Below, piece by piece: positions 3,851 through 59,607 of a stretch of 64,000 bases of DNA. Within the stretch, counting starts at the first letter, position 1; each line of letters opens with the position of its first letter. The notes under the pieces were generated by a model. It worked only from the letters and a program-made list of their open reading frames with translations. It was not told the origin of the DNA and made no database searches. This DNA comes from Octopus vulgaris. Taxonomy: Eukaryota. The stretch spans positions 23,870,001 to 23,934,000 of the forward strand of contig OX597821.1 in assembly GCA_951406725.2 (NCBI GenBank). Reading direction: 5' to 3'. A program made the translations under genes and the position numbers.

Positions 3851-3932
3851 CATCTATGGGCCATTTCGGAGACGCACCAATTAATATGAAACATATCATA
3901 TATTTAAAATTGGTACTCCCCTCGTCAGGATG
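3851..3932 (-). ncRNA. Minimal type I hammerhead ribozyme, AUA cleavage site
   Basis: Minus strand: CAUC-CUGACGA-GGGGAGUACCAAUU...AAUUGGUGCGUCUCC-GAAA-UGGCCC-AUA|GAUG. Stem I is CAUC/GAUG, stem II is a long hairpin, and the catalytic core is complete. Confidence 0.8.
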
Positions 3933-5204
3933 TTTTTTACACACAACACATAGTACATGGAAACAAATGCACAATTACATACCTGCTACATGTGAAAGAC
4001 CAGACATTACATGCTCCCAAAAATTCTCATAGATACTGAATGCTACTTTATAAGCATATAATTCAATCTAGCAGCTATAGTAAATGGTATGCGCACAGCT
4101 CCATCTGGACTAATTCACTTCTACACTCGATTAAATTTTTCATCTTTTAATTTTTCCCATTCATGCAAAGCCACATATTCAAGTTCAAATCCTTGATACA
4201 TTTTATACTAATTGCTATTTTTTCTTTTAATTGTTATATTACAATTTAATTACCATTTTAATAAAATAAAATATATTTAATTACTACCTACTATATTTAC
4301 TATATTTAATTCAATTGTTATTATTACCTCTAACTTTTATTGCAATTTTTATTTTTAAATTTCTTATGGAACGTTGAGTGGATCTTATGCATACAATATA
4401 TTTTTATATGATGTTTATATATTTATATATTACTATATATTTCTAAATGTCAGACTTTATGTCTGTTCTGTAGATATAATTGAATATATGTATGTGTATG
4501 ATCTTTCTGTGGATTTTGTAGTGCTCTTGTAGTTGCTGCTCGCATTGCCTCCCCTCGGATTAAAAAGTGTATACAGCTCATTTGAGCACTACTATTCCAG
4601 TCTGTTATATATTTTGATCGTTGTTGTCAATAACGATCTCAAGATATAACTTTATATTTTGTAATATATATATATATATATATATATATATACATCCATA
4701 TACATACAATAGAGAGATGTTTTTGTTTCACTTTTAACACGTAATACTGAAATAGTGGAGAAGATATGAGATTGCTGTGGGCTCGCTCTAGGCAAGAAGT
4801 TGAACATTTTTTGTTTTTTCCCATGACACTACATGAACCCTAAGTAAGGCATGTGTAAAATTTGAATGAAATTGTTTGTGTAGTTCTCAAGTTTTAGGGA
4901 AACACACAGACAGACAGACAGATAGACACACATTCTCAGTTCTATATATATAGAGGTATATACATATATATATACATATATATGCATATATATATATATA
5001 TGTATATATATATATATATACATATATATATACATATACATATATATATATACATATACATATATATATACATATACATATATATATACATATACATATA
5101 TATATACATATACATATATATACATATACATATATATATATATATATATATATATATATATACATACATATATACATACATACACATATATATTCATCTT
5201 ACAG

Positions 5205-5283
5205 TTAACCTGGTTATCCATGGAGCTGGGTTCCCACAGCTTGGTCCTTGTCACATTTCTTGAGCGTTTACAGAATACAAAAG
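5205..5283 (+). CDS. Internal exon of the same methyltransferase-domain gene
   Basis: cttacag|TTA...AAAG|gtaag, 79 bp. Encodes [26 protein letters not shown](A); phase 0 in, phase 1 out, matching the neighbours. Confidence 0.75.
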
Positions 5284-6448
5284 GTAAGTTCCACACATTA
5301 ACATAATTAATAATAACCCTCAACTGCCATAGAATATCTTATTTTTGTGATGTGTATATAGTACCAGACTGGATTAGAACTAAAAACTAAGGATAATACT
5401 GTGTGTCTCACCATCTTAGTCTAAAACCTTCACTCAAAATTTCTTTAGCGCTAACAATATTGTTACATTCTGTAAGAGAGTCTTAGCTTGAATGTTGCTT
5501 GGCGCTAAGAACACATCCAGGAATTAGACACCTGATGATAATTAACAACCAAACTTATTGAAATGTTGTGCAGATGTAAATACGGAATAATTTTCCAAAG
5601 ACAAGGTTGGTAAGAACAAAAAATCTTACTAACAATAAGTTACCGCATTTTTTTTTAAATAAAAAGTCGATCTGCATGAGACAACTGATCTCAGTTGAGG
5701 TTACATCATCATCATTTAGTGTCCGCTTTCCATGCTAGCATGGGTTGGACGGTTCAACTGGGGTCTGGGAAAACCAGAAGGCTGCACCAGGCCCAGTCTG
5801 ATCTGGCAGGGTTTCTACGGCTGGATGCCCTTCCTAACGCCAACCACTCCGTGAGTGTAGTGGGTGTTTTTACGTGCCATCCGCACAACAATTATACAAT
5901 AAAAATTATTTAAGTTCAATTAGATCAAAATGATATATTAACTATAGGAAAACTACATACTAAAGGTGGTGCTCCAGCATGGCCGCAGTCAAATGACTGA
6001 AACAAGTAAAAGAGTAAAAGAGTAAAGAGTATAGGATAGCTGCAAGAGGCTGAATCTGATCAAATGGAATGAAAAAAAAAAGCTAAAACAGATAGAATAT
6101 TTGGACCATATGGTTAGTGCAAATGCTAAAAGATTAAGTCAAGTTACATATTTCAGTCAACACACCTTAGAAAATCTACTATGTGATTACAATGGAAACC
6201 AAATTCTTGAATCACATTAGCTATAAATGTGACTGGTTAGAAATAACAACCAAATCTCCCTCAAATAATTTCTTAGTATCTTTAAAAATTAAAGCTACAT
6301 TATATAATGTATAACTGGAGAGATTATTTTTGAGTAAAAATTGGACGGAACATCTTTGATCATAAGTCTACTTGATCAGAAATGAGCCAGCAACAACTAC
6401 AACACTTCTCCTCTCAGACAAATGGCTATATATTTGATTTATTTACAG

Positions 6449-6557
6449 CTTGGCTTTATCGACTTTGGGAATTGCTGAAGCATGATGGCTTATTGGTCAT
6501 TACTTCTAAAGACACCACATGGACAGCAGCTGAGTTACAGCAGTACCTACAGCCCAG
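6449..6557 (+). CDS. Internal exon of the same methyltransferase-domain gene
   Basis: tttacag|CT...CCCAG|gtaag, 109 bp. Encodes (A)WLYRLWELLKHDGLLVITSKDTTWTAAELQQYLQP(R); 'LKxxGLLVI' resembles MTase motif III. Confidence 0.75.
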
Positions 6558-57412: not shown

Positions 57413-57578
57413 CTTGTAAAGTACCATGTGGCTATTATTTCAGATATCACCAACTGTTCACATGCCAGAATGAATTCTCCTGTCCAGATCAACCCAATTA
57501 CATGGTACCACCAAAAATAGGACACATATGCATGTTCCTTGTAAGTGACAAACCCTGCATCATTTGATTCAGGAATTT
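57413..57578 (-). CDS. SLC44A1: CTL-like exon
   Basis: 166 bp; ...[36 protein letters not shown], a CTL signature. Confidence 0.9.
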
Positions 57579-58875
57579 CTGAAAATTTCAATAAACTTCA
57601 TAAATTAATAACAAAAATAATAATAATGATAATAATAATAATAATAATAATAATAATAATAATAATAAAAATAATAATAATAATAATAACAATAATAACA
57701 ACAACAACAATAGTAAGCAAAGATATAGACAAATGGTTGAAAGAGATTGAAATAGAATGCCCAGTAGAACTCCTACAAAAACTTTGTCTCTTAGGGACAG
57801 CAAGGATTATCAGTAGGGCTCTAAGCACTTGAAAGACTGCTTAAAACTTGTGGATACCTAAAGTTACAGGTAGTAACCCACTACCCACATAAATTCTACG
57901 AGGAATAAGACTGAACCGGAACCAAAGCAAAATAATAATTCATAATAATAATAATAATCCTTTCTATTATAGGCAAAGTCCTGAAATTTTGGGGAAGTAA
58001 GCAGTCAATTGCAGTGATGTCAGTACTTAACTGGAACTTACTTCACAGCTGAAAATCCACAGGGGAGGATGCAAAGCCTCATTCATACATTTTGAATTTG
58101 TTAGTACTGGATGTCGAGGGTGGTTCGTCTGAGGTTATTCAAATTAGACGGGTATGTTAGATTTTTAGTGCTCTCAAATTTAAATTTAACGAAATCTTGG
58201 GCTGATGACAGGAATGTTAGAATAGGTATGTATTTCTAGCATCTCTATATCTAACTAACCCAGAGACGCGTTCTCAAGTAATCGATTTTCGAGTGATCTT
58301 TCGTTATTTTTCCCTCTATGCCTACGTGAATTGTTTTTGAGTATACATTGTCTGGGAGACTCTTCTTATAGTAGGGGAAATAGCAAAATTCTTTGGCTGC
58401 TATTTCTAAAAGTTCAGTGTGTGGTAAAGTAAATTTTTTTGCTGAACCCTTATCATATAAAGTATATATATATATATATATTCTTTTATTTGTTTCAGTC
58501 ATTTGACTGTGACCTTGCTGGAGCACCGCCTTTAGTTGAACAAGTCAACTCCAGGGCTTACTCTTTGTAAGCCTAAAACTTATTCTATCAGTCTCTTTTG
58601 CCAGACCGCTAAGTTACGAGGACATAAATACATCAACATCGGTTGTCAAGCAATGGTGGGGAACAAACACAGACACACAAATTTATACACACACGCACAT
58701 ATACATACAAACATGTACATGGATACATACATACATATATATTAGACGATATACCACAATCCCCTATTTTGTCGGGTATGTTCTGAGTCTGCGCAGTGTT
58801 TTGAATAGTTTAGAAAGAGCGTTTCAATAGACGCACATGGGTCTATTAATATGGTCTTCCCATAATTAACAGGAA

Positions 58876-58948
58876 TCTTACTGAAGAGCCAGCCTGAGTA
58901 AATAAATATTATTTTTATTACTGAATTTGGCGAAACTGCAGTATAAGA
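58876..58948 (+). ncRNA. Minimal type I hammerhead ribozyme, GUA cleavage site
   Basis: UCUUA-CUGAAGA-GCCA...UGGC-GAAAC-UGCA-GUA|UAAGA. Stem I is a perfect 5-bp helix and stem III is the palindrome CUGCAG. Confidence 0.85.
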
Positions 58949-59607
58949 AAAGCTAAGTTTGTAAAAGTTTTTAATTTTCATCTCACTAAATTTATCCAGC
59001 TTTTGTGTATCTAGTGCACTCTTTGCCTTGAATGTAATTATATATGAATAATATATGGCGTGTACTGGTACACCGGCGATTATAATTAATTTTATTGTAT
59101 CGCATTTAACTTTGTGTGTATATATATATATATATATATATATATATATATATATATATGACAGGCTTCTTTCAGTTTCTGTCTACCAAATCCACTCACA
59201 GGGCTTTGGTCGGCCTGAGGCTATAGTAGAAGACACTTGGCCAAGGTACCATGCAGTGGGACTGAATCCAGAACCATGTGGTTGGTAAGCAAGATACTTA
59301 CCACAGTCAGTCCTGCACCTAATGCAAGTAGGTACTAATATGCACTTCTACCGATAGATAATGTAGGTTAACATTTGTGAGATTATGTACCTTCAATTGG
59401 TTGGTTTAACTATACTCTGTACATACCTAGTAGTCAAAATGCCCTGATGAAGCCCTTGATGGACTGTAGCATCATAATGCACTAAAAGATACAGAAGATG
59501 CATCTTGATAGTGGCGGAAATGTCATGTAGGAGAAAAAAAGAACATAAATGAGTGCATGATAACAAATTGGATATTCTCTGTTCTCTGTTTTCCTCAAAC
59601 TGATTCA

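Follow-up and report, generated by a model that had tools for sequence, protein, structure and literature searches.

Predicted long-armed hammerhead ribozymes of Octopus vulgaris in the 3' ends of Penelope-like elements, in a tandem repeat and in a Helitron

Hammerhead ribozyme motifs and the mobile elements that carry them were studied in a 64,000-nucleotide (nt) stretch of the Octopus vulgaris genome (assembly GCA_951406725.2, contig OX597821.1, positions 23,870,001 to 23,934,000 of the forward strand), called the window hereafter. A sequence-only reading of the window had noticed three intact hammerheads and a degenerate one, and had attributed them to independent families of a possibly undescribed system of non-autonomous, Penelope-dependent retroelements. 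We searched for the motifs with a descriptor, followed their relatives through the genome (2.8 Gb, 227 contigs) and compared the families, named A to F below, with published systems.

The type I descriptor used for the window asked for at least 4 bp in both stem I and stem II, and found exactly three hammerheads, at 3928(-), 44226(-) and 58881(+):

3851 to 3932, minus strand: hammerhead A, type I; core at 3928, 54 nt between the core boxes, stem III TGGCCCA, predicted cut after 3855.
44104 to 44230, minus strand: hammerhead B, type I; core at 44226, 100 nt between the core boxes, stem III CAGCTG, predicted cut after 44108.
58876 to 58948, plus strand: hammerhead C, type I; core at 58881, 44 nt between the core boxes, stem III CTGCAG, predicted cut after 58943.

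All three possess the core (CUGANGA, GAAA and UH) and stems I to III, and are open at stem I. In 300 block-wise dinucleotide shuffles the mean was 0.01 motifs and the maximum 1, and none (0/300) reached three. A fourth motif at 59444(+), belonging to family D, is decayed: both core boxes are kept, stem I has only 2 bp and stem III is wobbled. The number of motifs given by the sequence-only reading was thereby confirmed. Of the design that it had described as common to them, the long stem II stands (44-100 nt in the window) whereas the "minimal" stem III does not, this stem being a 6-7-nt palindrome and not absent. The self-duplex energy of stem III is -11.1 kcal/mol for B and C and -10.2 for the A family, and none of the three 9-/8-mers at stem III in the window folds into a hairpin. 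Folding z-scores of the whole motifs are modest (-2.0, -1.4, -1.5 and -0.6). The Rfam hammerhead model is absent from the 150 listed of 169 window matches at E ≤ 5 (the other 19 being weaker), which agrees with the earlier suggestion that standard searches could miss a long stem II. A candidate at 5532(+) with a 3-bp stem, without relatives in the fetched loci, was treated as chance. We consider the four motifs to be predicted type I hammerheads, one of them decayed, their cleavage being predicted from sequence.

Density was estimated from 80 evenly placed 10-kb stretches of the genome (0.8 Mb). A strict descriptor found 13 hammerheads there (0.43 in shuffles), 4 of them long-armed, i.e. with a long stem II, and a second descriptor found 19 (0.18 in shuffles), 5 of them long-armed. 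Extrapolation gives approximately 45,000-66,000 hammerheads genome-wide, the 13 sampled ones corresponding to about 45,000 (24,000-78,000) and the 4 long-armed ones to about 14,000 (3,800-36,000). The very many ribozymes expected by the sequence-only reading are therefore present in the extrapolation, but the density of the window does not hold genome-wide: it is 47 per Mb, whereas the sample has 16-24 per Mb in total, of which 5-6 are long-armed. As only 4-5 long-armed motifs occur in 0.8 Mb, the window is above average, three in 64 kb exceeding expectation (P = 0.004). Proximity to (TA)n, also noticed before, was borne out, 11 of 13 sampled hammerheads lying within 300 nt of (TA)8 compared with 24% of random positions. 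In the fetched loci, 134 strict matches fell into 18 clusters, about ten of which have a stem II region of at least 40 nt. The first-look candidate loci numbered 1,748 for A, 2,610 for B, 709 for C and 56 for D, which are not copy numbers, and 40 were scored for each family.

As stated by the sequence-only reading, no reverse transcriptase (RT) open reading frame (ORF) adjoins the hammerheads within the window. All four hammerheads are parts of repeat families, A, B, C and D, and its claim of several independent families is supported. Three of these families, with the Helitron that contains the first, are arranged as follows:

3693 to 4956, minus strand: non-autonomous Helitron, 1.26 kb, with a captured Penelope 3' end; 5' TC end and (TGTC)n, 3' hairpin and CTAG, then T in family copies.
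3717 to 4395, minus strand: forward 3' part of family A, a putative Hydra-clade element, reaching from the final codons of the GIY-YIG ORF to beyond the ribozyme; it stops at the Helitron 3' end and is 86% identical to locus L096 directly after the endonuclease ORF of the latter.
4386 to 4708, plus strand: inverted copy of the extreme Penelope 3' end, within the Helitron; it ends in (TA)14 at 4665-4692 and matches in reverse the 3' tails of the free copies L090, L092 and L110 (78-84%).
43728 to 44419, minus strand: 3' end of family B, a second putative Hydra-clade family, 5'-truncated and ending in (TA)12.
59330 to 59615, plus strand: family D, old; an inverted arm (about 59330-59424) and a forward 3' end with the decayed hammerhead (about 59441-59531).

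The exact 21-nt motif of the A ribozyme occurs 44 times in the genome. Among 30 fetched A loci, 14 lie inside the Helitron and 16 are free; the free copies are 5'-truncated, the longer ones beginning within the GIY-YIG ORF. The GIY-YIG protein of A, used as a query, gave 18,307 candidates in the genome, and at the best 30 endonuclease loci A sequence follows in 26 and extends to the ribozyme region in 24, approximately 390-520 nt after the ORF. At one family A locus (L098) the end of the RT and the endonuclease share a 644-aa frame, and in a sister family (L139) an 806-aa frame encodes RT and endonuclease, and a hammerhead with a stem II region of 50 nt comes after it. Family A endonuclease copies are clustered on contig C30 (19.9-21.1 Mb), with Helitron_like_N matches near them; the cluster may reflect duplication or transport within a larger element.

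For family B, six copies were picked for long homology, and an endonuclease lies about 2 kb upstream in the same orientation in all six; in one of them (L308) an RT is also present, followed by the C-terminal GIY-YIG domain, upstream of the ribozyme. The endonucleases of B and A are 32% identical. The mismatch of the B core (1.1%) versus its flanks (2.9%) is not significantly different (P = 0.25, 15 copies). A degenerate TTAGGG array at 44521-44602, immediately upstream of the truncated B copy, belongs to another repeat. Relatives of D are 70-87% alike and often two-armed, and an endonuclease remnant lies upstream at 2 of 13 loci. Insertion into (TA)n, 5' truncation and an inverted arm were all seen for A, B and D, with 3' ends fixed at (TA)n while the 5' ends vary. 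A long-armed hammerhead with a variant CCGAAGA core was also found at L316:2240-2330, about 200 nt after a Hydra-type endonuclease ORF.

The ORFs contain DKT, CxCX5C, CxxC and CxH motifs, read by eye, DKT being found in B and the sister families and not in A or D. An N-terminal RWK motif was seen in a related element (L323), the N-termini of L139 and L308 being missing or broken. In the available text of Craig et al. 2021 (PMC8557442) the Hydra clade of Penelope-like elements (PLEs) with a C-terminal endonuclease (EN+) is defined by the same four motifs and by (TA)n targeting, with the RT followed by GIY-YIG, and its members are described with a hammerhead near the 3' end, a palindromic stem III of 6-7 nt and 5'-inverted copies. 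An earlier assignment of the family A donor to the Neptune type was dropped once this definition had been compared. Since A, B and D continue, in longer copies, from a GIY-YIG ORF with Hydra motifs, they appear to be 3' ends of coding elements, and we regard them as probable truncated 3' ends of Hydra-clade PLEs. The Penelope dependence put forward by the sequence-only reading thus stands. Its "non-autonomous elements", by contrast, are for A, B and D truncated ends of coding elements, an outcome close to the one that it had itself named as its refutation.

The octopus families differ from the published Hydra elements in their stem II region of 44-109 nt, loop 2 being given as 3-10 nt in the supplement of PMC8557442, which lists Hydra-1_Obim; B differs also in its 3' untranslated region of about 2 kb. 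Twelve 11-12-nt motifs of the octopus families gave no matching element and one chance match in the part of this supplement available to us, in which line breaks can hide matches. The minimal PLE hammerheads of Cervera and de la Pena 2014 (PMC4209133), as far as accessible, are alike in their helix I of 4-5 bp, palindromic helix III and dimer requirement, and in the thousands of solo motifs left by truncated PLEs; they differ in that their "large" helix II has 6-8 bp, the octopus ones being several times longer. A literature search for "extended stem II" turned up nothing related. Ribozymes of cephalopods were covered, as far as text was available, by PMC8557442 and by a giant squid survey that counted 235 Rfam hammerheads; no other studies turned up.

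Given the several unrelated long-armed families among the 18 clusters, the shortness and lack of ORFs of most copies and the truly non-coding nature of C, one might still think of ribozyme retroelements that are non-autonomous, independent of one another and of one common design, forming a system not yet described. This is highly unlikely. It is already largely refuted for A, B and D, which join PLE ORFs in longer copies; L139 and L316 are two more coding Hydra-type elements with a long-armed hammerhead just past the ORF; Hydra PLEs are known to have a palindromic stem III, to target TA and to show 5' inversions (PMC8557442, available text); and C fits non-LTR (long terminal repeat) retrozymes, as shown below.

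The sequence-only reading had placed all hammerheads in short AT-rich units and did not see that A travels in a Helitron: the unit of A is the 1.26-kb element with Helitron ends listed above. Its interior consists of the inverted Penelope 3' end and of a forward end that stops approximately 140 nt after the ribozyme, and in the window copy 15 nt of the 3' hairpin are deleted. In 32 Helitron-borne copies the 5' motif was found in 24, the 3' junction in 29 and the terminal GCTAG in 19; a T follows 18 of 19 complete ends and an A mostly precedes the TC, in flanks that are TA-rich, as might be expected of insertion between A and T without target duplication. The junction between Penelope and Helitron sequence has 115 exact occurrences in the genome (control, 1), and the 3' end of the Helitron family has 2,113, the ribozyme being present in 0 of 30 sampled. 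In a phylogenetic tree, which left out three free loci that were too short, 32 Helitron-borne and 18 free copies were included; the former group together as a single clade (support 97/90) within the latter. The sampled Helitron-borne copies have a single origin.

Mismatch in 31 Helitron copies was 2.15% in the core versus 2.49% in the flanks (P = 0.86) and 5.6% in the stems, whereas in 22 free copies, chosen by protein, it was 2.6% in the core versus 8.0% in the flanks (P = 0.0016); related copies are not independent and these P values are a guide only. The A core is thus constrained across Penelope subfamilies and no constraint is seen in the Helitron. The same ribozyme is conserved in a retroelement lineage and decays when moved as DNA, which argues that it serves the retroelement. 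Could the Helitron nevertheless use the captured ribozyme, for example by ending read-through transcripts or by adding an RNA phase to its cycle? The ribozyme lies in the orientation of the Helitron, about 140 nt before its 3' end, and an intact core is kept in 20 of 31 Helitron copies (12 of 22 free copies). We nevertheless give this explanation very little credence, in view of the core decaying as fast as the flanks and the stems faster, the lack of the ribozyme in the 30 sampled family 3' ends and in the 7 RepHel loci examined, and the lack of a partner for the palindromic stem III of a lone copy.

RepHel Helitrons are abundant in the genome, with ORFs of up to 1,744 aa, and 5 of 7 fetched loci have a similar 3' end. 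As candidate autonomous partners they resemble the carrier in the 3' hairpin with TGCTAG and in a TC-TA-rich 5' start, the likeness being short only. Two ribozyme-free siblings of the carrier Helitron lie in the window:

37969 to 40656, plus strand: sibling Helitron; it holds fragments of the Penelope 3' end found in the carrier, and a gag-like zinc-knuckle ORF of 407 aa.
50606 to 51631, plus strand: sibling Helitron in the common short form.

In this commonest form of the Helitron, the Penelope pieces are 79-85% identical to A and a gag-like zinc-knuckle ORF or its remnant replaces the ribozyme; it possibly represents a second capture from the same Penelope family. In four Helitron-borne copies of A (L003, L005, L011 and L296) the broken 3' hairpin runs into one common foreign repeat, and three of them cluster in the tree, which looks like a bypass of the 3' end or like a master copy that had received an insertion. 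Another small Helitron, likewise non-autonomous, abuts family D at 59608-60003 (+), its 3' end being 86-89% like those of RepHel loci L337-L340 and L343. Insect Hel-2-type non-autonomous Helitrons (PMC4344730, PMC6431247) share, in the text available, the 5' TC, the 3' hairpin with CTRR, AT insertion, (CTGT)n near the 5' end and the capture of foreign sequence; the octopus element differs in its cargo, a two-armed Penelope end with an intact ribozyme. No paper on a Helitron bearing such a cargo turned up in the literature, as far as accessible.

Family C is of another kind:

58742 to 59115, plus strand: family C monomer of a 404-bp unit, slightly 5'-truncated, with (TA)20 at its end; it lies in an intron of a choline-transporter gene, on the opposite strand.

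Elsewhere in the genome C forms arrays of up to five head-to-tail 404-bp units, non-coding and with one type I hammerhead per unit. In a survey of 24 distinct loci out of the 709 candidates, the 3' end falls on the same base in 23, 172 nt past the cut site and mostly running into (TA)n, the 5' starts are scattered, and no ORF is joined to C. No C sequence was matched in 50 endonuclease loci. The L316 endonuclease was rejected as a partner of C, since it belongs to a different element that has a ribozyme and a TA end of its own. A low-stringency search of the fetched loci gave one 89% relative and one weak match. In three of four candidate RNA runs (X1, X3 and X8) C is present as one closed contig of 434 nt each (404 + 30) with the palindrome intact, and in the fourth (X13) only as a 305-nt piece. 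Contigs of X1, X3 and X8 join three spliced exons of a choline-transporter-family gene (55258-55399, 57412-57578 and 60591-60778, minus strand), so these runs are RNA. A closed 404-nt cycle takes the shape of a unit-plus-30 contig in such an assembly. Both C and D are intronic and antisense to this gene (minus strand, 55-61 kb).

These features fit the described metazoan non-LTR retrozymes (Cervera and de la Pena 2020, PMC7229834; Li et al. 2026, 10.64898/2026.07.22.740005), which, in the available text, consist of non-coding units of about 170-400 nt repeated in tandem, each with a single type I hammerhead, occur as monomers to multimers and are proposed to depend on PLEs. C differs in its long stem II, and no parent pseudo-LTR was found for it; cephalopods are unmentioned in the accessible text of PMC7229834. 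Together with A, B and D as Hydra-clade 3' ends, the fit of C leaves no undescribed system of the sort proposed by the sequence-only reading. As 24 of 709 candidate loci were examined, and the 3' TA anchoring and 5' truncation are as in coding elements, C might instead be a mere pseudo-LTR belonging to a coding Penelope element that has so far escaped detection, with arrays that are partial tandems and not a free retrozyme. We think this unlikely, given up to five exact units head to tail with no ORF piece between them, the L316 endonuclease belonging to another element and the absence of C from the 50 endonuclease loci. A circular or multimeric RNA, copied by a Penelope enzyme, is the likely source of C.

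Taken together, the window is best explained by predicted type I hammerheads of which three lie in clipped 3' ends of Hydra-clade PLEs and one in a non-coding tandem repeat of 404 bp, which a Penelope enzyme probably made from an RNA circle or multimer, one of the PLE ends having been spread within a non-autonomous Helitron, likely as passive cargo. We assign this explanation a probability of about 0.82. Several points weigh against it. The Pfam GIY-YIG scores (21.8 and 17.6) are below the cut-off of 22.6 and the 806-aa frame gave no Pfam match; with Pfam support this weak, the clade assignment relies on visual recognition of the motifs. None of the A, B or D copies found is an intact full-length element, the link of D to a Penelope endonuclease comes from two decayed loci, and the lowest-energy predicted fold of hammerhead B is an alternative to the hammerhead fold. 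No enzyme partner was identified for C, and its closed 434-nt contig is equally expected from a linear multimer or from transcribed tandem arrays. Finally, resemblance to the window copy was the basis on which the Helitron copies were chosen, so that a single clade is favoured, and their star-like burst gives little power to show selection on a master copy.

The following mechanism can be proposed. The GIY-YIG endonuclease of the element would nick (TA)n, and its RT would copy the RNA from a fixed 3' point in a target-primed manner, usually stopping early; early stops and inversions would leave short ends, with or without the ribozyme and often with one inverted arm. The palindromic stem III would pair two molecules, so that cleavage is likely a two-ribozyme event in tandem transcripts, freeing unit-length RNA; dimer cleavage is described for PLE hammerheads in the accessible part of PMC4209133, and the stem III pairing found here is in line with it. 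C RNA, once cut into single units, would close into circles that are copied over more than one round. One two-armed copy of family A likely inserted into the TA-rich internal part of a small Helitron and then likely lost the end of its forward arm; captured once, it would have been multiplied as DNA by a RepHel protein provided in trans. More speculatively, and we regard this as rather improbable, octopus PLEs and retrozymes may have repeatedly grown stem II into a 40-110-nt domain with a job of its own, such as RT loading or the control of dimer cleavage, the Helitron capture providing an RNA-independent route to more than 100 sites, where pairs of transcripts could be cut in trans via the palindromic stem III.

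The kinds of elements described here are mostly known; the new details are the unusually long ribozyme arm and the capture of a Penelope ribozyme, spread more than 100 times by a Helitron as apparently idle cargo. Some ten thousand long-armed hammerheads would thereby be added, of a sort not listed by the Rfam scan in the window; they offer natural variants with which to study the role of PLE ribozymes, a question left open in the available text of PMC8557442. The Helitron-borne A subfamily provides a built-in control for ribozyme conservation, and cautions that ribozyme copy number need not reflect RNA-based mobility.

The inverted structures noted by the sequence-only reading at 43.5, 53.5 and 32.7 kb were found again:

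43453 to 43713, minus strand: family E, two-armed 3' end without ribozyme; longer E copies carry a hammerhead.
53471 to 54033, plus strand: family E, second two-armed 3' end, the arms separated by a piece of a short interspersed element (SINE).
32644 to 32895, no strand assigned: foldback F, the end of another TA-flanked repeat, with no family named.

The hammerhead of the longer E copies has a stem II region of 72-75 nt. The forward arm of the second E copy begins, at about 53688, a few bases from the predicted ribozyme cut site, a single case beside the SINE piece. The SINEs of the window look octopus-like. No ribozyme was found in foldback F or in the few relatives examined. A match resembling U5 small nuclear RNA at 51903-52018 (+) is just above the Rfam gathering score (41.1 versus 40), and gag-like ORF fragments of a family of the long interspersed element (LINE) type lie at 21600-22900 and 38524-40010.

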